Assembly (NCBI RefSeq): GCF_003334315.1
Contig: NZ_QOWR01000025.1
Reading direction: 5' to 3' (one strand)
DNA: 64,000 bases
Source: Escherichia coli
GTDB lineage: Bacteria; Pseudomonadota; Gammaproteobacteria; Enterobacterales; Enterobacteriaceae
Under the pieces are notes generated by a model. That model was not told the origin of the DNA. It did not search any database and worked only from the letters and a program-made list of their open reading frames with translations. Shown here piece by piece: positions 6,698 to 56,217 of the stretch. Both the position numbers and the translations under genes were made by a program. The stretch's first letter is position 1; every line of letters begins with the position of its first letter.

Positions 6698-7522
6698 ATG
6701 GATAAACCAAAGGCGTACTGCCGCCTGTTTCTCCCCAGCTTTCTTTTACTTTCGGCTTGTACCGTTGATATCAGCCAGCCAGACCCATCAGCCACAGCAG
6801 TAGATGCCGAGGCAAAAACATGGGCTGTCAAATTCCAGCATCAAAGCTCTTTCACCGAACAATCAATAAAAGAAATAACGGCACCTGATCTCAAACCCGG
6901 CGATTTGCTGTTCTCCTCAAGCCTTGGGGTAACCTCATTTGGAATCCGCGTCTTCAGCACTTCCTCTGTGAGTCACGTTGCAATCTTTCTGGGTGATAAT
7001 AACGTTGCAGAAGCGACAGGCGCTGGCGTCCAGATCGTTTCCCTTAAAAAAGCGATGAAGCATAGTGATAAGCTTTTCGTCTTACGAGTCCCGGATCTTA
7101 CCCCGCAACAAGCCACAGATATCACCGCGTTTGCCAATAAAATCAAAGATAGCGGTTATAACTATCGCGGCATTGTCGAATTTATTCCCTTTATGGTGAC
7201 TCGCCAGATGTGCTCACTGAATCCGTTCTCCGAGGATTTTCGCCAACAGTGCGTCAGCGGCCTGGCGAAAGCGCAGTTAAGCAGTGTGGGCGAAGGAGAC
7301 AAAAAGTCGTGGTTTTGTTCGGAATTTGTCACGGATGCCTTTGCCAAAGCCGGGCATCCACTTACACTGGCGCAATCGGGCTGGATTAGCCCTGCCGATC
7401 TGATGCATATGCGTATTGGTGATGTCTCTGCGTTTAAGCCAGAAACGCAGTTACAGTATGTTGGGCACCTGAAGCCTGGGATTTATATCAAGGCGGGTCG
7501 CTTTGTTGGTTTGACCCGGTGA
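6698..7522 (+). CDS. yaeF: putative lipoprotein YaeF (NlpC/P60-like)
   Basis: 274 aa from the internal Met (MDKPKAY...) with lipobox LLSAC; the upstream extension in the ORF track overlaps the proS terminator and is unlikely to be translated. Confidence 0.8.
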   Translation: MDKPKAYCRLFLPSFLLLSACTVDISQPDPSATAVDAEAKTWAVKFQHQSSFTEQSIKEITAPDLKPGDLLFSSSLGVTSFGIRVFSTSSVSHVAIFLGDNNVAEATGAGVQIVSLKKAMKHSDKLFVLRVPDLTPQQATDITAFANKIKDSGYNYRGIVEFIPFMVTRQMCSLNPFSEDFRQQCVSGLAKAQLSSVGEGDKKSWFCSEFVTDAFAKAGHPLTLAQSGWISPADLMHMRIGDVSAFKPETQLQYVGHLKPGIYIKAGRFVGLTR

Positions 7523-7527
7523 TAAAG

Positions 7528-7650
<123 letters not shown>

Positions 7651-7721
7651 AACGTGCAAATTCAAAATGTTGAAATATATCCTTCTGGCCTGTTTTGCGT
7701 TTGTTTCTGTCTCAAGACGGG

Positions 7722-8432
7722 TTACTGCCCCAAACTACTGCAATCCTGGTTGGGGTAAAATTTCCCTGCCGTATCGGGTGCCAATACTTTAGTCGGCGCA
7801 CCGGTATCCGGATTACCCTCAAGCGTAAAGTGACCTTCTACTGACAGTAACACCGGTTTTTCACTGTGACCGCGCGCAGCCAGGTAGCTACGCTCCAGCT
7901 CTGCGTTATTCGCTACCATGAAACGTTTTCCGGTCGCGCAATCAGTGAAGGTCGCCGCATCAGCCATATAAAAATACATGCCCCGCAGGGTCATCGGCGT
8001 CATAGGTAAACTGGATTGTGCCGCTTCCAGCGTATAGTTGAACTGCGATTCAATCGGATTGCCTTCACGATCGAGCATCTCCAGCGCATCGCCTTTCGCC
8101 CGATAATATGACTTTTCACCTTTGCTGTCGGTTAATACCAGCTTGTCAGCGGTTCGCGCCCATGTACCGTAGGAAGCGAAGGAGGAAGGTTCTTCACGAG
8201 CACCGAGATAACGCTCATTCATCACCCATGTTCCGTCTTTTTCGAGGAACAGAGAGGTTTCGATTCCTTCGCAATCGGCACACGGCAGCACGCCGCGCCA
8301 ACTTTGCGGCATCGGTTTCAGTTCGGCAGCCTGCGCCGGAGAAAGCGTATCGACTTCGGCCCGATTATTACATCCCATCAGAGTAAAGAGGCTGATTACA
8401 GCCATCGCTGTCACTATCGCTTTTTTCACCAT
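7722..8432 (-). CDS. nlpE: outer-membrane lipoprotein NlpE (Cpx pathway activator)
   Basis: 236-aa ORF with lipobox LFTLMGC and a CXXC motif. Confidence 0.93.
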   Translation of the reverse strand: MVKKAIVTAMAVISLFTLMGCNNRAEVDTLSPAQAAELKPMPQSWRGVLPCADCEGIETSLFLEKDGTWVMNERYLGAREEPSSFASYGTWARTADKLVLTDSKGEKSYYRAKGDALEMLDREGNPIESQFNYTLEAAQSSLPMTPMTLRGMYFYMADAATFTDCATGKRFMVANNAELERSYLAARGHSEKPVLLSVEGHFTLEGNPDTGAPTKVLAPDTAGKFYPNQDCSSLGQ

Positions 8433-8445
8433 CCATTCCTTCTTT

Positions 8446-8868
8446 TTATTCCCGACCGCTGCGCACTTTGCCGCGCATCGCCTTCACGCTTGATTTTTGT
8501 GCTTTCGATGCCAGCCTGCGCTCTTTCGATGCACGGGTGGGCCGCGTGGGTCGTCGGGCTTTTTTTTCTGTTGTTAATTCTTTAATCATAGCCACCAGCC
8601 GGGCCAGAGCTGCTTCGCGGTTCAGTTCCTGACTGCGGTATTCCTGTGCCTTAATGACAATCACGCCATCACTGCTGATCAAATGATGGCTGGCGGCGAG
8701 CAGACGCTCTTTGTAATACTCTGGCAGGCTGGACGCCCGAATGTCAAAACGCAGATGAATAGCCGTTGAGGTCTTATTAACATGCTGCCCGCCCGCGCCC
8801 TGCGCACGAATGGCGGTGATCTCAAGCTCACCATCGGGAATAGCAACATGTCGGGAAATCACAATCAT
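8446..8868 (-). CDS. arfB: peptidyl-tRNA hydrolase ArfB (ribosome rescue factor)
   Basis: 140-aa ORF with a GGQ motif (AGGQHVNKT) and a basic C-terminal tail. Confidence 0.93.
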
Positions 8869-9410
8869 GAAGGTTGTTGCCAGGCGGTTAAGTTCACTTC
8901 CAGATTATTCTTATCATCCGATAACCAGATCACGCCATCCTGAATCGTTGCCTGCAGCGTCATGGTACGATCGGCAAAGGCGCTTACTTTCGCCAGTTGT
9001 TCATCGTCCAGATACCAGACGGAAAGATTGGCAAACTGCACACATTTGCTCTGATTTTGCTGCCACCAGATTTGCGCCGCCCGACTATTATAGGTAAACA
9101 GCGCCACTTCTGCGGCCTGGGTGCAGGCTTTCTTAATCCGCCGCTCATCCGGCAGCCCCAGCTCAATCCACAAATCAATGCCCAGGTGATCGTTACGCAG
9201 CCACGCTTCCGGCTCATCATCGGCACACAAACCACGGGTAAATTGCAGACGTTCATCAGCATATTTCAGCCACGCCAGCAAGCGCAGCATCATACGCTCC
9301 TGGGTTTCTGAAGGATGGCGCGCCAGCGTCAGAGAGGCATCGAGAAACTGGTTGCGGTCGAGATCGGCCACATTAACCGTCGCTTTATAAATTGTCGCTT
9401 TAAGCGCCAT
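8865..9410 (-). CDS. yaeQ: YaeQ family protein (uncharacterised)
   Basis: 181-aa ORF; its stop overlaps the arfB start by 4 bp. Confidence 0.88.
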
Positions 9411-9575
9411 AAGAAAACTCCTTTCGAATCAGGAGGCCATTGTAACGGAATACGTGCAGTTGCGGCGCTGATATTGCAGAAATGAGTGTGGTATAGTCAC
9501 CTTGCGAAACAGAGTTTATCTTCGTAGGCTTAGACTTGCATCCACGGTTAAGTCAGAGTGCTGACAGGAGGGCAT

Positions 9576-9776
9576 GTGGAAAAATATTGTGAGTTAATAC
9601 GCAAGCGGTACGCGGAAATCGCCAGCGGAGACTTAGGATACGTTCCGGACGCGCTGGGCTGCGTTTTGAAAGTGCTGAATGAAATGGCTGCCGACGACGC
9701 CCTTTCTGAGGCTGTCAGGGAAAAAGCAGCATACGCTGCGGCAAACTTACTGGTGAGCGATTATGTCAATGAATGA
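9576..9776 (+). CDS. yaeP: UPF0253 small protein YaeP
   Basis: 66 codons from GTG at 9576, preceded by a strong RBS aggaggg (9565-9571); the ORF track begins at an upstream GTG (9558) without a comparable RBS. Overlaps rof by 14 bp. Confidence 0.7.
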
Positions 9777-10023
9777 TACGTATCAACCAATCAATTGTGA
9801 TGATTACGATAATCTTGAGCTCGCCTGCCAGCATCATTTAATGCTGACACTTGAGCTGAAAGATGGCGAAAAATTGCAGGCAAAAGCCAGTGATTTAGTC
9901 TCCCGCAAAAATGTGGAATACCTGGTCGTCGAGGCCGCTGGCGAAACCCGCGAGCTGCGTCTGGATAAAATTACCAGCTTTAGCCACCCGGAAATCGGTA
10001 CGGTGGTGGTAAGCGAATCCTGA
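9763..10023 (+). CDS. rof: Rho-binding anti-termination protein Rof (YaeO)
   Basis: 86-aa ORF overlapping the yaeP 3' end; sequence matches Rof. Confidence 0.9.
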
Positions 10024-10032
10024 TTGACTTTC

Positions 10033-10065
10033 GCCGGATGCGACGTTTGATGCGTCTTATCCGGC
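10033..10065. repeat. REP element
   Basis: gccggatgcgacgtttgatgcgtcttatccggc palindrome between the convergent rof and tilS stops. Confidence 0.75.
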
Positions 10066-10071
10066 TTTCAC

Positions 10072-11370
10072 TTAACTAAGCGTTTTCTGCCAGACAAAAC
10101 TTACGCCATTCTCACCTTCAGCCACACCTTCTTGCGTCACAAATACCCCTGCCGCCGCAATCAGCGTTTCGCCATAAAACAGCAGTGGCGTGGTGTCACG
10201 TAGCCACGGCGGCACGCCCAGCTCTTGCCAGATTTTCTTTAGCTTACGTCCGCCGTTACGCCCGACAATATGCAGCAATCCTGGCGCTTTGAAACGCACG
10301 CTGACCGCTTCGTCTGCACGCGGAGGGCGAATATCGCCTCCCGCATTAAGCTGTACACTTCCCAGCCCCGCCGGTAATTCCAGCGGTTGAAGCCACGTCT
10401 GCCACGGCACAATGTTTTCGCTTTGCCCGGTGACGGATTTAATCCACCACAGTTGCGACTGATAGCGTCGGATTTCAAACGCGCCCAAACGTAAACAGGG
10501 TGAGGCATCTTCCCGCGCCAGCGCCACTTCCTGCCAGATCCTCACCAACGCGTCGCGGGAAGGCATCGGTGCATTCTGCCCTGCCAGCCAGCGGCGGATA
10601 ATCGCCGCGCGGCGGGCATCACTCATCGCCAGCATTGGCACAATCTGCAGCGTCCCCTGCGGCGATTGACAGTGTGCTAAATCATCTGCCAGCAGTTCAT
10701 CCAGCAGGCTCTCTTGTTCAGCACAAAGTGCGGCGCTGCGGGCCGTTGCTTCGGCAAAATGCGGCCAACGCTGCTGCAATAACGGCACTACGCGCAGGCG
10801 CAGAAAGTTACGATCGTATGAGTCGTCCTGATTACTTTCGTCTTCAATCCAGCGTAAATCATACTGACGCGCCCACTGCACCAGTTCCCCCCGCGTGCGG
10901 GCGAGCAACGGGCGAATAAGCCGCGTTCCGGCAAACTCCGAGACTTCCGCCATAGCCGAAAGCCCGGCAGGGCCACTGCCGCGTTTTAGCGCCAGCAGAA
11001 AGGTTTCACATTGATCGTCGAGATGTTGCGCGGTGACCAGCACTTCACCGGGCAACAAGGTGCGGGCAAATGCCTGATAACGTGCCTGCCGCGCCTGGGC
11101 CTCAATGCCCAGTCCTTCTTGCGCAAGTTGTACGCGTTCGACCACCAGCGGCACCTGCCACTGTTGGCAGACGTTTTCGCAATGCGTAACCCAGGCATCG
11201 GCATTGGCACTTAAACCGTGATGCACATGAATAGCGCGCAGAGCGACACCCGGATTTTCCGTCCGCCACTGCACCAACTGATGCAGCAGAACGGTGGAGT
11301 CAAGCCCGCCGCTAAAGGCCACCAGAATCTGGCGTGAGGTGAGAAGTTGTCTATTGAGCGTGAGTGTCAT
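10072..11370 (-). CDS. tilS: tRNA(Ile)-lysidine synthetase
   Basis: 432-aa ORF with the PP-loop motif SGGLDS near the N-terminus. Confidence 0.95.
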
Positions 11371-11434
11371 GATGGTGCGATTTTACAGTAGCAATGCCCG
11401 GCACGTTACCGGGCAAATGCGGCGATGACAAGCC

Positions 11435-11824
11435 TTACTGCTCATACAGTTCCAACGGCAGCCCGTCCGGATCGTTAAAGAAGGTGAAGCGTTTTTGCGT
11501 GTATGGATCGACACGGATGGTTTCACACTTCACGTTATGGCTTTCAAGGTGCGCCACTGCCGCATCGATGTCATCAACGCTAAAAGCCAGATGACGCAGA
11601 CCGCAAGCTTCCGGTCGGCTGGGTCGTTCCGGCGGGAACGGAAATGAGAAAAGCTCAATCACATATTGCCCATTAAGCGCCAAATCCCCTTTCCATGAGT
11701 CGCGCGCTTCGCGATAGACTTCGCTTTGCAGCGTGAAACCAAGAATATCGCAGTAGAAAGCTTTGCTCACCGCATAATCCGTCGCAATAATCGCAATATG
11801 GTGAACCTGTTTTAAACCCAGCAT
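11435..11824 (-). CDS. yaeR: VOC/glyoxalase-family protein YaeR
   Basis: 129 aa from the internal Met (MLGLKQVHH...); the ORF track adds 9 upstream codons. Confidence 0.85.
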   Translation of the reverse strand: MLGLKQVHHIAIIATDYAVSKAFYCDILGFTLQSEVYREARDSWKGDLALNGQYVIELFSFPFPPERPSRPEACGLRHLAFSVDDIDAAVAHLESHNVKCETIRVDPYTQKRFTFFNDPDGLPLELYEQ

Positions 11825-11880
11825 AACGTCTCCTTTATTTGTTAACAGCACGTTACTCGCCCGGAAGCCGCTCTGGCAAG

Positions 11881-14022
11881 TTATCCCGCCATTTTTAGGA
11901 CTCGTACGCGGTAAACGCCGTCTTCGTCCTGTTTCGCGCCGTGAATATCCGTTTCAAAACCGGGGTAATGTTGCCCGACGGAACAAAGCATCAGTAGAAA
12001 ATCGAGTACTGTGCGGCTCTCTTTGGTCAGCATTTCTCCAGGCATCAACAGCGGTACGCCCGGTGGATAAGGCAGGATCATATTTGCCGATACTCTACCG
12101 ACCAGTTGTTCCAGCGCAATGGTTTCTACTTCGCCTTTAATTTGTCGTTGCCATGCCTGATGTGGCGTCATGATCATCTCCGGCAAAGTATCGAATGCCC
12201 GCAACATCAAACCGGGAAGATCGTGTTTACGAATCAGCTTATGGATCCCTTGTGCCAGATCCTGAATACGCATATTGCGGTAGAAATCGGGATCTTCTGC
12301 ATAGAGATCGGGTAGCATATTTTTGATCCGCAGGTTGAGATCGTAAGAGCGTTTGAATTCCGTCAACCCACGCAATAATCCCATTGCTTTGGTTTTATCG
12401 ATGCCAATACTAAAGAGAAACAGCAGGTTATAAGGGCCGGTTTTCTCTACTACGATCCCACGTTCGTCGAGGAATTTTGCTACCAGCGCCGCCGGGATCC
12501 CCTCCTCGCTCATATTGCCCTGCTCGTCCATCCCCGGTGTCAAAATAGTGACTTTAACCGGATCGAGAAACATATGATCGGCATCCGCATCGTTAAAGCC
12601 GTGCCACTGTTCGCCAGGCGCAACGGGCCAGCATTCGGCTTCATCCACCTGCGGCGGTTGCCAGATATCGAAAAACCAACCGTCAGACTCTTCCCGCAGC
12701 CGCTGGACCTCTTTGCGAAAATGCAGAGCTCGTTCTACTGAACGGTTAATCAGCCGTTTGCCCGGATTACCACGCAGCATCGCCGCCGCCGTCTCAACCG
12801 AAGCAACAATGGGATAACTGGGCGAGGTGGTGGTATGCATCATAAAGGCTTCGTTAAAGGCCTCTTCGTCATACTCGCCTTTAATGTGGATCAGCGAAGC
12901 CTGCGATAACGCCGCCAGCATTTTGTGGGTCGATTGCGTTTCGAAGATCACTTTTCCCGCAACACGCTCGCCGCTCATACCACTTTTACCCTGGTAGATC
13001 GGATGAAAATGGGTGTACGGCACCCAGGCAGAATCGAAGTGAATCGACGGGACATCCAGCGTCTGTTTGATCCAGTCGGTGTTGTAGAGCAAGCCATCAT
13101 AGGTGGAGTTGGTGATCACCGCATGAACCGGCCATTGTGCTTGCGTGGTAGCAGCGACTTTCTCTTCGATGCTGTCGCGAGTAAATTCACGGCGCGGGAT
13201 CCCACCAAGAATCCCCAACGCATTACGCGTCGGTTTCAGCCAGACTGGCACTACATCGTTCATCATCAACAGATGCGCCAGCGATTTATGACAATTGCGG
13301 TCGATCAACAGCGTACTGCCGGATGGCGCGGCGTACATACCCACAATTTTGTTCGACGTCGATGTTCCGTTGGTAACGATATAACTCTGTTCCGCGCCAA
13401 AAGTCCGCGCGATGTACTCTTCCGCTTCCAGGTGTGGCCCGGTGTGGTCGAGCAACGAACCAAGCTCGGTGACCGAAATAGAGACATCAGCCTTAAGAGT
13501 ATTCCCGCCGAAAAAATCATAAAACAGACAGCCAACCGGGCTTTTTTGATATGCGGTACCGCCCATATGCCCCGGCGTACAAAAGGTGTACTTCCGCTCT
13601 TTGACGTAGGTAAACAAGGCTTTCGTGAACGGCGGTGTAATGTTATCAAGATATTCGTCGGTGTACTGACGCATACGAATGGCGATATCTTCCGCCTGCC
13701 CCAGCGCATATTCAAAAAACCAGAGCGCCATCCGCATATCCTGCACGCTGACATCCATCGTCGAGTGGGTGTTGATGAAGGCATAAAGCGGGAGATATTC
13801 ATTAAGCTGATTGATATCGCTACATAAATCGAGACTGTACTCATCCCAGTCAAAAATCACGCCGCAAATTCGAGGGTTATGTTCGATAAATTTCAGCAAA
13901 TCAACGCTGTTTTGTGGCCAGATAATCTGAAAGCCTTGCGCCACCAGCGCCGACTCCAGTTCTTTGATGGGCTCATCTTTATAAAAGACGCCATGCGGTC
14001 CCATAATGGCAATGATGTTCAT
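11881..14022 (-). CDS. ldcC: lysine decarboxylase, constitutive (PLP-dependent, Orn/Lys/Arg decarboxylase family)
   Basis: 713-aa ORF with the wing, PLP and C-terminal domains of this decarboxylase family; its position between yaeR and accA matches ldcC rather than cadA. Confidence 0.93.
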   Translation of the reverse strand: MNIIAIMGPHGVFYKDEPIKELESALVAQGFQIIWPQNSVDLLKFIEHNPRICGVIFDWDEYSLDLCSDINQLNEYLPLYAFINTHSTMDVSVQDMRMALWFFEYALGQAEDIAIRMRQYTDEYLDNITPPFTKALFTYVKERKYTFCTPGHMGGTAYQKSPVGCLFYDFFGGNTLKADVSISVTELGSLLDHTGPHLEAEEYIARTFGAEQSYIVTNGTSTSNKIVGMYAAPSGSTLLIDRNCHKSLAHLLMMNDVVPVWLKPTRNALGILGGIPRREFTRDSIEEKVAATTQAQWPVHAVITNSTYDGLLYNTDWIKQTLDVPSIHFDSAWVPYTHFHPIYQGKSGMSGERVAGKVIFETQSTHKMLAALSQASLIHIKGEYDEEAFNEAFMMHTTTSPSYPIVASVETAAAMLRGNPGKRLINRSVERALHFRKEVQRLREESDGWFFDIWQPPQVDEAECWPVAPGEQWHGFNDADADHMFLDPVKVTILTPGMDEQGNMSEEGIPAALVAKFLDERGIVVEKTGPYNLLFLFSIGIDKTKAMGLLRGLTEFKRSYDLNLRIKNMLPDLYAEDPDFYRNMRIQDLAQGIHKLIRKHDLPGLMLRAFDTLPEMIMTPHQAWQRQIKGEVETIALEQLVGRVSANMILPYPPGVPLLMPGEMLTKESRTVLDFLLMLCSVGQHYPGFETDIHGAKQDEDGVYRVRVLKMAG

Positions 14023-53973: not shown

Positions 53974-56217
53974 TTAGAAACGGAAGGTTGCGGTTGCAAC
54001 GACCTGACGTTCTGCGCCCCAGAAGCAGCCATAAGTGTTAAAGCAGCTGGCGACGTATTCACGATCGAACAGGTTGTTAACATGCAGCGCCACGTTGGAG
54101 CCAGCCATGCCGACTCGCGCCAGATCATAACGTACTAACGCATCCACGACCGTATAACTTCCCACTTTAAAGGAGTTAGCCGGATCACCATAGCTGGAGC
54201 CAGTATAACGACCACCGGTGCCCAGCGTCAGACCTGAAAGCGGACCGTCAAAGAAGGTATAGTCAGCCCACAGCGAAGCCATGTGTTTTGGCACCTGTGC
54301 AGGCGTATTGCCTTTATAGGTAGTATCGGTGGTGTATTCCGCATCGGTGTAAGTATAAGAACCGACTACGTTAACACTCGCCGACAGCGCCGCTTTCGCT
54401 TCGATTTCTACGCCACGTGCGCGGATCTCGCCACCTTCAACCGAGAAGAAGGAACCCTCAGGGTCCGCCATCAGGTTGTTGGTTTTAGTGAGATTATACA
54501 CGGCACCAGTAACTACAATCGGACGATCTTCCGGTACATATTTCACGCCGACTTCATACTGCTTACCTTTAGACGGTGCGAAAATATTACCATCCTTCCC
54601 AACTTGCGAAGAAGGTTCAAACGATTCGCTATAGCTGAAGTAAGGTGTTACACCATTATCAAACAGGTAGTTAACACCACCACGCCAGGTAAACTGTTTG
54701 TCATCACGTTTATCGGTCGTCCCGGCAACGCGGTTAAGAGATTCTTGATCTGCCCAGTCATAACGACCGCCCAGGGTGACCAGCACTTTATCCCACTGCG
54801 CCTGATCCTGAACATAAACGCCCGTTTGTTTCTGTTTATTCAGAATGCGGTAAGGGCCGGAGTTTGCCGGATCTTTGGCATTGAAGTCGAAATCGGTATT
54901 CACCGGATTGTACAGATTGAGCAGTGGCACAGAGTCGTCGTAACCAAACCAGGCGTTGATGTCATTACGCATACGCATAAAGTCGACACCGGTCAGCAGG
55001 GTGTGGTCGATATCGCCAGTGGCAAACTTGCTCTGCAACTGGGTATCAACGGAGAAGTTTTGCAGCTTCTCATCATCAACGACGTATTTACGTGCCAGAT
55101 AATGGCCTTTATCCGCTGGCGCTAATGCCGCACACTGTTTGCTGTAAGCATTCGCCGGATCGGAGCAGACGCCGTAACCATAAACGCTGTTTTGCGAGGT
55201 TTTGTTTTCAGCAAAGCGCAGGTTCTGACGCACAGTAAAGGTGTCGTTAAATTCGTGATCGAAGCTGTAGCCCACCATCTTCTCATTACGTGAATAGGTG
55301 TTGTTCTTCGCCCCTTCATTAAAGTCTGTCGGCAGACGCTTACCGTTCGGCAGCGGCTCAACGGTTCCCTCTTTCGGCAACCAGCCGTAATAACCGGTTT
55401 CCGGCTCGTTCTGGAAGTAAGAAAGGAAGGTGAAATTGGTTTTATCATCCGGACGCCAGGTGAACGCCGGTGCAATAGCATAACGCTGCTCTTCTGACCC
55501 TTTCTGCTGGGCATTGGCAGAACGCGCAAGACCGGTCAGGCGATAAGAGTAAACGCCGTCATCATCCAGCGCATCGCTAAAGTCAAAACCAGTCTGGAAC
55601 AGGCTGTCAGTACCGGCTTTAAACTGAACTTCTTTCAGCGGTTCGGTGGTCGGACGCTTGCTGACCATATTCAACAGACCGCCAGGACTGCTTTTACCGT
55701 AAAGCACGGAAACCGGGCCACGCATAATTTCAGCGCGTTCCAGCATATACGGATCAATGACCGCATCGTTATAGAAGTTGCCCTGCAACTTCAGGCCATT
55801 CAGATAGTTATTCTGGCTTTGGCCTTCTGCCGCAAAACCGCGAATGATCAGGTGGTCATAGGTGTTGGATGCGCCACGCGTACCAACAGAGACACCCGGC
55901 GTGTAGCTAAGCGCTTCTTTTACCGACTTCGGCTGATGCAGCGCCATCTCTTCGGCGGTCACAACAGAAATAGACTGTGGCACTTTTTGAATCGGCGTAT
56001 CGGTTTTAGTGCCGGTAGCTGACTGTCGCGCCGCAATAGTTGCAGCAGGCCCCCATGCGCTTTCTTGCGGCGCAGGTGCAGCGGTAACGGTGATAGTGTC
56101 TTCTTTCGGTTCAACCGCTGCCTGTGCATAAACAGACATGCCGCTAACCGCTGTGGCTACTACAACTGCGATTTTACGCAGTGAGTGTTTTGGCTGAGCA
56201 GTTTTGGAACGCGCCAT
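53974..56217 (-). CDS. fhuA: TonB-dependent ferrichrome outer-membrane transporter
   Basis: 747-aa ORF with signal peptide, plug domain and beta-barrel ending in a terminal F. Confidence 0.97.
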   Translation of the reverse strand: MARSKTAQPKHSLRKIAVVVATAVSGMSVYAQAAVEPKEDTITVTAAPAPQESAWGPAATIAARQSATGTKTDTPIQKVPQSISVVTAEEMALHQPKSVKEALSYTPGVSVGTRGASNTYDHLIIRGFAAEGQSQNNYLNGLKLQGNFYNDAVIDPYMLERAEIMRGPVSVLYGKSSPGGLLNMVSKRPTTEPLKEVQFKAGTDSLFQTGFDFSDALDDDGVYSYRLTGLARSANAQQKGSEEQRYAIAPAFTWRPDDKTNFTFLSYFQNEPETGYYGWLPKEGTVEPLPNGKRLPTDFNEGAKNNTYSRNEKMVGYSFDHEFNDTFTVRQNLRFAENKTSQNSVYGYGVCSDPANAYSKQCAALAPADKGHYLARKYVVDDEKLQNFSVDTQLQSKFATGDIDHTLLTGVDFMRMRNDINAWFGYDDSVPLLNLYNPVNTDFDFNAKDPANSGPYRILNKQKQTGVYVQDQAQWDKVLVTLGGRYDWADQESLNRVAGTTDKRDDKQFTWRGGVNYLFDNGVTPYFSYSESFEPSSQVGKDGNIFAPSKGKQYEVGVKYVPEDRPIVVTGAVYNLTKTNNLMADPEGSFFSVEGGEIRARGVEIEAKAALSASVNVVGSYTYTDAEYTTDTTYKGNTPAQVPKHMASLWADYTFFDGPLSGLTLGTGGRYTGSSYGDPANSFKVGSYTVVDALVRYDLARVGMAGSNVALHVNNLFDREYVASCFNTYGCFWGAERQVVATATFRF

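Follow-up and report, generated by a model that had tools for sequence, protein, structure and literature searches.

The overlaps of yaeP with rof and of yaeQ with arfB in Escherichia coli are operon junctions fixed in Enterobacterales, and for the yaeP-rof pair the best explanation is probably a junction at which the synthesis of rof is tied to the translation of yaeP. Both pairs lie in a window of 64,000 nucleotides, the whole stretch of DNA that was analyzed, within a segment running from the stop of arfB (position 8446) to the start of yaeR (position 11824). The junction between yaeP and rof is constrained at the nucleotide level, and this constraint may reflect a ribosome-binding site for rof that appears to be embedded in yaeP. 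As Rof acts globally against the essential termination factor Rho and is toxic in excess, control of its synthesis is a real question, for which the yaeP-rof junction and its leader offer the obvious starting point. Neither the locus nor its overlaps nor the conservation of these is new to the literature; a 2024 paper (PMC11018626) mapped the locus and reported the overlaps, the lack of obvious Shine-Dalgarno (SD) elements, and a yaeP-rof overlap that is strict in Enterobacteriaceae. The additions made here are modest: evidence about which start codon rof uses, and a candidate ribosome-binding site concealed within yaeP. A first-pass annotation had named this run of genes as the most plausible place in the window for undiscovered biology; the overlaps and the unassigned functions that it noted hold up, while its inference is already in print.

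The segment is the standard E. coli chromosome, ldcC-yaeR-tilS / rof-yaeP / yaeQ-arfB-nlpE, and contains no new system. Of 5,426 complete E. coli genomes, 5,425 carry the stretch from 8446 to 11824, which has 100% DNA identity to E. coli chromosomes and contains open reading frames that correspond one-to-one with the RefSeq feature table. The first-pass gene identifications (yaeQ, yaeP, yaeR, rof, arfB, and tilS) match the genes that RefSeq annotates in a genome with 100% identity, and the accompanying remark that the sequence gives no sign of a new system agrees with an ordinary, fully annotated chromosome. Family models (NCBIfam) scored above their curated cutoffs, Pfam matches and solved structures were concordant with the RefSeq gene names, and essentially all of 80 loci from Enterobacteriaceae species share this gene order. 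Three of the six genes (those for ArfB, TilS, and Rof) have an established function. YaeP, YaeQ, and YaeR have solved or homologous structures and no known activity; neither family models nor the literature assign them a role, as the first-pass annotation had supposed, and nothing in the window gives a new handle on what they do. PADLOC models returned zero matches to the five small proteins at E ≤ 0.01 and gave no indication of anti-phage defense.

Between rof and tilS lies a REP-type palindromic element (10022–10066, no strand assigned), recognized from weak, sub-threshold Rfam matches on both strands to naRNA4, a REP-derived family. These were the only matches in an Rfam search of positions 7500–12500 at E ≤ 1, and none fell in the yaeQ/yaeP intergenic region; REP elements flank the yae locus on both sides (PMC11018626). 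Next to the element, on the minus strand, tilS (10072–11370, 432 aa) encodes the tRNA(Ile) lysidine-34 synthetase, for which the formation of lysidine in tRNA-Ile is established. Its product scores 806.6 bits against NF007942 (cutoff 606), also matches TIGR02432 and TIGR02433, and combines the PP-loop (SGGLDS) with the C-terminal domain of TilS. The gene yaeR (11435–11824, minus strand, 129 aa) is predicted to encode a VOC (glyoxalase I-like) metalloprotein, with 289.9 bits to NF008551 and 199.1 bits to NF050075 (SMU1112c/YaeR family), both above cutoff, and a match to Pfam PF00903, which together place it among the VOC and SMU1112c/YaeR proteins; solved homologues are 2P25 and 3L7T. A literature search for yaeR, the matches of which were flooded by misspellings of "year", found no functional assignment.

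The gene yaeP (9576–9776, plus strand) ends in TGA at 9774–9776, and rof (yaeO; 9763–10023, plus strand) begins inside it. The resulting overlap (9763–9776, plus strand) measures 14 nt from ATG 9763 and 8 nt from ATG 9769, and the 14 bp reported at first pass holds with the RefSeq start at ATG 9763. Stop and start thus overlap on the same strand, as in coupled gene pairs. The same arrangement recurs in all 81 loci compared, with no register drift by even one nucleotide, although all but one of these loci come from a single family and kinship inflates the apparent invariance; the junction is also preserved in the distant locus L082. The co-conservation of the overlap in related genomes, which the first-pass annotation had put forward as a check, is therefore positive. 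Relatedness is partly controlled for by contrasts within genes. Across 74–78 distinct orthologous sequences, yaeP codons 58–66 have a mean synonymous heterozygosity of 0.009, whereas the median 9-codon window has 0.365. Some of the frozen codons lie upstream of the overlap proper and specify Leu and Ser, amino acids with 6-fold degeneracy. In codons 1–57 the amino acids are conserved while synonymous sites vary, and the 3′ end of yaeQ before arfB, in contrast, varies normally.

Rof is an Sm-like inhibitor of Rho, 86 aa long when read from the RefSeq start at ATG 9763, the length of PDB 1SG5, to which it is identical, and 84 aa long from ATG 9769, as in PDB 8W8D and Said et al. 2024. It scores 181.5 bits against NF008636 (cutoff 117), with model positions 1–86 all matched, and it matches chains of the solved Rho-Rof complexes 8W8D and 8PTM, which places it among the Rho-binding Sm-like proteins. 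All 81 loci keep the first ATG, but two species (loci L016 and L023) have ACG in place of the second; this comparison favors ATG 9763, with its 14-nt overlap, as the candidate start of rof, and ATG 9763 is probably the start actually used. The activity in vitro of the 84-aa Rof in the 8W8D and 8PTM constructs counts against this.

The last codons of yaeP hold a candidate translation-initiation region for rof (9747–9765, plus strand), composed of an SD-like GGTGA at 9752–9756, a 6-nt spacer, and ATG 9763, of which both GGTGA and ATG are kept in the distant locus L082. The sequence GGUGA pairs with the 3′ end of 16S rRNA; here it is a weak SD-like match and a candidate SD for rof. Said et al. 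measured the overlap from the second ATG, at 8 nt, and described rof as having no SD (PMC11018626). Set against that account, the invariant SD-like GGTGA 6 nt upstream of the first ATG is a refinement concerning the same object. The freezing of 9747–9776 could also have other causes, such as RNA structure or the binding site of another factor. A hairpin at 9751–9789, which would sequester the SD and the AUG, is part of the E. coli minimum-energy fold, with z only −1.6; the SD is paired with its hairpin partner in only ~15 of 68 distinct orthologous sequences, and no covariation was seen. This hairpin was not adopted, as its pairing partners differ in most species, and because of the same inconsistency a variant of yaeP-rof coupling that acts through unmasking appears unsupported.

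Upstream of yaeP, a consensus scan predicts a sigma-70 promoter for yaeP-rof (9468–9497, plus strand) with CTGATA, an 18-nt spacer, TATAGT, and an extended −10 TG, and almost every one of 59 distinct leader sequences retains TGnTATAGT. Where the yaeP leader is predicted to begin, conservation scored column by column over 78 distinct sequences reveals a nearly invariant block (9498–9532, plus strand), CACCTTGC[G/T]AAACAGAGTTTATCTTCGTAGGCTTAG. The E. coli fold contains a hairpin at 9501–9528, which was rejected; G9506 is T in most species without a compensating change, and the stem therefore fails to explain the conservation of the block. A long-range pairing of the leader block with the junction was likewise discarded, the duplex (−11.1 kcal/mol) being no better than shuffles (mean −14.3). 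Comparison of the block by eye with a few transcription-factor consensus sites (LexA, PhoP, CpxR, and marbox) gave no convincing match. Closer to yaeP, a hairpin of the form GTCAG-loop-CTGAC (9552–9565, plus strand) is predicted directly upstream of the ribosome-binding site. In relatives its stem sequence is constant while its loop varies in sequence and length, and because there is no covariation the hairpin is suggestive only as a real element. The SD of yaeP, AGGAGGG (9566–9572, plus strand), can be read directly from the sequence, with positions 9567–9571 invariant across 78 distinct sequences, and the start at 9576 is GTG in 76 of the 78. The GTG start and strong ribosome-binding site described at first pass are accordingly both conserved in related species.

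YaeP belongs to the UPF0253 family and is a 66-aa protein of three helices that forms a dimeric helical bundle. It matches Pfam PF06786 (E 8e-34) and NF003436 (137 bits, cutoff 99) over its full length, and its sequence is the same as that of SF173 from Shigella flexneri (PDB 5H1N), which is described as a dimeric helical bundle. The structure prediction and remote homology search proposed at first pass yielded no lead for YaeP; its AlphaFold model (pLDDT 91) had 5H1N as the sole significant match in a fold search of the PDB, and the other matches, all at E > 2, were not informative as remote homologues. Among 1.84 billion proteins, 36 representatives at 50% identity belong to this family, which makes it very small. 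Outside Enterobacterales, YaeP occurs without an adjacent rof and among unrelated neighbors, which differ in every lineage sampled, and no conserved partner genes were found there. Searches for published functional assignments of yaeP/UPF0253/SF173, yaeQ, or arfB together with yaeQ gave none beyond the papers cited here.

On the minus strand, arfB (yaeJ; 8446–8868, 140 aa; arfB in RefSeq) encodes the alternative ribosome-rescue peptidyl-tRNA hydrolase, and its role in freeing peptides from stalled ribosomes is established. The product scores 201.5 bits against the equivalog NF006718 (cutoff 100) and has both the GGQ motif (GAGGQHVNK) and the basic, Lys/Arg-rich C-terminal tail of ArfB. Its neighbor yaeQ (8865–9410, minus strand, 181 aa) encodes a YaeQ family protein with a PD-(D/E)XK-like fold that matches Pfam PF07152 over its full length (E 3e-71). 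Residues 2–181 align with PDB 3C0U (E 4e-120), the printed alignment showing no differences, and YaeQ shares the HPSE..ER, RGL, DEP, and WIE-G motifs with the solved homologues, which also include 2G3W, 7TCB, and 2OT9. The YaeQ family has been placed in the PD-(D/E)XK superfamily (PMC3424549), and an early claim that YaeQ compensates for the loss of RfaH, attributed to Wong 1998, is contested in Vicari and Artsimovitch 2004.

The stop of yaeQ and the start of arfB overlap on the same strand in an ATGA (8865–8868, minus strand) read directly from the sequence, and the overlap noted at first pass is conserved in related loci. Of 80 loci, 72 have ATGA at the junction (one of them GTGA) and six more have TGATG or TAATG, with a 1-nt overlap; the distant loci L082 and L083 have a 3-nt gap. 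There is no special sequence constraint at this junction, and its form suggests ordinary termination-reinitiation coupling. Outside Enterobacterales the neighbors of YaeQ are unrelated, with no ArfB within 3 kb in seven diverse replicons. The operon-like synteny of yaeQ and yaeJ (arfB) served as a worked example in a 2022 paper (PMC9252766).

For yaeP-rof, the translational coupling that the first-pass annotation read from the overlap would work as follows. The extended −10 promoter would give rise to a single yaeP-rof mRNA, on which the strong yaeP site (AGGAGG, GTG) would load ribosomes. Initiation of Rof would depend on the weak region within the last ten yaeP codons, where the SD-like GGUGA and 6-nt spacer would lead to an AUG at 9763 sitting 11 nt before the yaeP stop, and ribosomes translating or terminating yaeP would be the main feed for this initiation. 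The amount of a toxic Rho inhibitor would in this way be linked to yaeP translation and held low. Levels of Rof are low and overexpressed Rof is toxic (PMC11018626; PMC9765468), and a 2022 paper put forward a modulation of rof expression by yaeP (PMC9765468).

The strict and sequence-invariant overlap across Enterobacteriaceae could also serve to fix a ratio between two proteins, were YaeP to act with Rof or Rho as a physical or functional partner (a chaperone, antagonist, or co-inhibitor), and YaeP is folded and conserved and thus more than a leader peptide. A multicopy yaeP-rof fragment came out of a screen and was tolerated, whereas induced rof alone blocked colony formation, which lends this view slight support as the expression levels differ (PMC9765468). 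Overexpression of YaeP alone, however, left colony phenotype and terminator read-through unaltered (PMC9765468), Rof by itself binds and inhibits Rho in vitro through a mechanism that has been described (PMC11018626), and YaeP is found without adjacent rof in other lineages, the two genes lying on different chromosomes in Vibrio cholerae (PMC11018626). The Rof-YaeP interaction raised by the first-pass annotation also gains nothing from an AlphaFold model of a YaeP-(GGGGS)6-Rof fusion, a weak test given its shallow alignment of 37 paired orthologue rows and no PAE, in which pTM was 0.38, the pLDDT of the YaeP part fell from 91 to 56–77, and no confident complex formed. A partnership of this kind is rather unlikely. 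Similarly doubtful is a two-part Rho-control module of Enterobacterales, consisting of a regulated switch and/or of YaeP binding to Rof or Rho, for which the frozen 3′ end of yaeP, the invariant 35-nt leader block, and the hairpin by the ribosome-binding site could be the parts of the switch. If true, the switch would set the amount of Rof under stress and the binding by YaeP would tune anti-termination.

It is distinctly unlikely that the overlaps reflect genome compaction, with rof and arfB initiated independently and the upstream genes as unrelated neighbors. Short overlaps, ATGA included, are very common in bacterial operons, and for this reason the overlaps alone are unsurprising; the SD-like element and conserved ATG of rof would permit independent initiation, yaeP and yaeQ live apart from rof and arfB outside Enterobacterales, and the 3′ end of yaeQ is under no special constraint. 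Against this, zero register drift in 81 loci and the frozen 9747–9776 exceed what neighborhood would lead one to expect, the yaeP site is far stronger than that of rof, and rof begins within the footprint of a ribosome terminating on yaeP, which would be the usual conditions for coupling. That yaeP is an upstream open reading frame controlling rof by translation only, its protein functionless, would fit with a small product (66 aa) that has no overexpression phenotype and no assigned function. This is very improbable, as codons 1–57 conserve amino acids while synonymous sites vary, the family is present in lineages without rof downstream, and YaeP folds into a defined structure, reported as solved by Kim et al. 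2018.

The yae locus of K-12 described by Said et al. 2024 (Nat Commun 15:3186; PMC11018626), in Fig. 1e and 8e, is identical to the locus analyzed here in its genes (tilS, rof, yaeP, yaeQ, arfB, and nlpE), their order, the divergent yaeP-rof and yaeQ-arfB-nlpE units, the overlaps, and the flanking REP elements, and the independent survey of relatives is concordant with that picture. The YaeP here shows no difference from its family (PF06786; 5H1N), and the YaeQ family (PF07152; 3C0U, 2G3W, 7TCB, and 2OT9) has a variant PD-(D/E)XK fold with no known nuclease activity or substrate. Classical coupled pairs with an ATGA or another short overlap, such as trpB-trpA and many in ribosomal-protein operons, share with yaeP-rof a same-strand arrangement with overlapping stop and start, a weak or absent downstream initiation signal, and a strong upstream ribosome-binding site. 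Compared with these pairs, the junction of yaeP and rof, at which coupling is probable, is unusual only in the total freezing of its nucleotides.

The six genes that the raw sequence and its ORFs show within 8446-11824 are part of a well-known and fully annotated locus, and the region 8300-12000 is present in 5,425 of 5,426 complete E. coli genomes by megablast, with several matches at 100%. The ORFs coincide exactly with the RefSeq annotation of one identical genome: arfB (8446-8868, minus strand), yaeQ (8865-9410, minus), yaeP (9576-9776, plus), rof (9763-10023, plus), tilS (10072-11370, minus) and yaeR (11435-11824, minus), with nlpE (7722-8432, minus) and ldcC (11881-14022, minus) placed on either side by the same annotation. 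ArfB, YaeP, Rof, TilS and YaeR score above the cutoffs of curated NCBIfam models, and the UPF0253, YaeQ and Glyoxalase assignments are backed by Pfam; given the agreement of both resources with RefSeq, all of the gene names assigned from sequence alone in the first-pass annotation are correct, and its remark that nothing in the sequence of this region points to a new system stands. REP elements have been described on both sides of the locus (PMC11018626). The Rfam search placed a strong match (92.8 bits; gathering score 59.5) to naRNA4, a REP325-derived nucleoid-associated RNA, at 7567-7643 on the minus strand between yaeF and nlpE, and a weaker, single REP-like copy between rof and tilS (10022-10066). 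An inverted repeat, GCCCGGCACGTTACCGGGC, lies at 11396-11414 in the 64 nt that separate yaeR from tilS; it lacks a T-run, is therefore no typical intrinsic terminator, and was not reported by the terminator scan.

The yaeP gene begins at GTG 9576 behind AGGAGGG at 9566-9572 and ends at TGA 9774-9776; the GTG start and strong ribosome-binding site noted at first reading are both conserved. An out-of-frame ATG (9574-9576, plus strand; CATGTGG) lies 2 nt 5' of this GTG and opens a 7-codon ORF that would share the yaeP Shine-Dalgarno (SD) sequence at very short spacing, and it is probably not used. There are two in-frame ATGs for rof. The first (9763) is used by RefSeq, the NCBIfam model (86/86 positions matched) and PDB 1SG5, and gives a 14-nt overlap with yaeP; the second (9769) is used by PDB 8W8D and Said et al. 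and gives 8 nt. The overlap is thus real, and the 14 bp originally proposed apply only to the first ATG. A scan with a YaeP alignment, covering a single genome for each species, yielded 80 Enterobacteriaceae loci, in essentially all of which the order ldcC-yaeR-tilS-rof-yaeP-yaeQ-arfB-nlpE is intact. The yaeP/rof junction keeps an identical register in 81 of 81 loci, so the overlap is co-conserved among relatives. ATG 9763 is invariant in the 81 loci, while two species (L016 and L023) carry ACG in place of ATG 9769. Even the more distant locus L082 (YaeP identity of 64%) has retained both ATGs, along with the GGTGA ahead of them and the overlap of 14 nt.

Synonymous heterozygosity, computed in 9-codon windows over 74-78 distinct orthologous sequences, lies on average at about 0.31-0.35 for yaeP and close to 0.40 for rof (median window, 0.365), and falls to 0.009 at yaeP codons 58-66, the lowest window of both genes. 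Dual coding cannot explain this frozen stretch, because it begins 16 nt before the overlap and takes in 6-fold degenerate codons for Leu (TTA, CTG) and Ser (AGC). Within it, at 9752-9756 and 6 nt 5' of ATG 9763, lies GGTGA, which is complementary to the 16S rRNA 3' end. Judged by conservation, the stretch probably contains a rof ribosome-binding site embedded in yaeP, and ATG 9763 is likely the start codon used. The arfB junction is unlike this one, as the last 12 yaeQ codons vary normally. A model in which yaeP translation unmasks the rof start was also considered: in E. coli folds a hairpin pairs the SD and AUG of rof with 9773-9789, but the SD has a different predicted pairing partner in most other species, and the model was therefore not adopted.

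A dedicated partnership of the two proteins is possible but unsupported, because a YaeP-(GGGGS)6-Rof fusion model (37 paired rows) reached a pTM of only 0.38, with lowered confidence for the YaeP part, and YaeP overexpression has no phenotype (PMC9765468). The YaeP family is very small (36 representatives at 50% identity among 1.84 billion proteins). Structure prediction provided no lead on remote homology: the YaeP model (three helices; pLDDT 91) found no informative fold neighbor aside from 5H1N, the existing YaeP crystal structure (SF173, 'dimeric helical bundle'). In the neighborhoods sampled outside the Enterobacterales rof is never adjacent, and the neighbors differ in each case (an overlapping DUF4250 gene, an ABC transporter, a MATE-type transporter N-terminus, M20 peptidase and UbiA, SulA, and MgtE). 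At the non-enterobacterial locus L084 (GCA_052877615.1, 5001-5398), yaeP overlaps a 63-aa DUF4250 gene via TAATG in place of rof, and YaeP can therefore be the upstream partner of another small gene. The representative search also returned P0136, a 1,134-aa protein with at least nine helical repeats of ~36 residues (...LLRALREVGADDAV...) and no Pfam family, which matches YaeP helices 2-3 (E 1.2e-9 summed over repeats); the likeness may be chance between Ala/Asp-rich helices, or YaeP may resemble a single repeat unit.

The overlap of yaeQ and arfB, ATGA at 8865-8868, is kept in 72 of the 80 loci (GTGA in one of these), with a 1-nt overlap (TGATG or TAATG) in six and a 3-nt gap in the distant loci L082 and L083. 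The association is restricted to the Enterobacterales, as the seven replicons sampled elsewhere (Aeromonas, Ralstonia, Pseudoalteromonas, Acinetobacter, Vibrio, Halomonas and Marivivens) have no ArfB homologue within 3 kb of yaeQ, in agreement with the yaeQ neighborhoods of a PD-(D/E)XK survey (PMC3424549). Two distant lineages, Ralstonia (L097, 3586-3939) and Acinetobacter (L099, 3618-3959), have an FKBP-type peptidyl-prolyl isomerase directly downstream of yaeQ. An unannotated, distant YaeQ-like sequence (39.6% identity over residues 19-165) was seen at 54376-54777 of CP044308.1, a 134-kb E. coli plasmid from chicken meat.

Upstream of yaeP, a conserved extended -10 promoter (TGnTATAGT) is predicted at 9489-9497, directly followed by a nearly invariant 35-nt block (9498-9532, plus strand) that, across 78 distinct sequences from the Enterobacteriaceae, is more conserved than the flanking genes are at third codon positions, and that is missing from the leader of L082. 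The block may serve as an operator or as a binding site at the mRNA 5' end. Rfam matched nothing in the yaeQ/yaeP intergenic region, this block included; the block's predicted E. coli hairpin is not supported, since G9506 is T in most species without a compensating change, and the pairing of the block with the yaeP/rof junction is no better than that of shuffled sequence. Abutting the yaeP SD on its 5' side is a predicted hairpin, GTCAG-AGTG-CTGAC (9552-9565, plus strand), whose stem is kept in related species as the loop varies in sequence and length; the yaeP leader of L082 has a comparable GTCA...TGAC hairpin upstream of its SD. On the minus strand, a conserved TACAAT read by eye at 9439-9444, inside a conserved block (9438-9450), is a plausible candidate -10 for the divergent yaeQ-arfB-nlpE unit, and was not reported by the consensus promoter scan.

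Much of this is in print. Said et al. (2024) drew the same locus (Fig. 1e), describing arfB and rof as lacking SD elements and as sharing 4 and 8 nt, respectively, with the ORFs before them, with rof always overlapping yaeP in the Enterobacteriaceae and the two genes on different chromosomes in Vibrio cholerae (PMC11018626). Morita et al. (2022), who took the overlap as a hint that yaeP modulates rof expression, for that reason cloned yaeP-rof together, and attributed terminator read-through to rof alone, which is toxic; YaeP alone had no detectable effect (PMC9765468). The operon-like yaeQ-yaeJ synteny served as a worked example for GeCoViz in 2022 (PMC9252766). The coupling proposed from the overlap in the first-pass annotation thus has a conserved basis but is not new, having already been published (PMC11018626, PMC9765468). 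Literature searches turned up no assigned function for YaeP, YaeQ or YaeR, as had been claimed; YaeQ has four structures and a place in the PD-(D/E)XK superfamily, and YaeR has two homologues with solved structures. Where these sources touch on it, YaeQ compensating for RfaH loss is an old and disputed claim (PMC9252766, PMC3424549). The first reading was a correct one of a known locus, and the window offers no new handle on these three proteins. The analysis contributes only evidence on which rof start codon is used, the candidate embedded SD and the conserved yaeP leader, all relevant mainly to research on Rof regulation. For rof, the candidate SD together with ATG 9763 would refine, and partly contradict, the published description of no SD and an 8-nt overlap.
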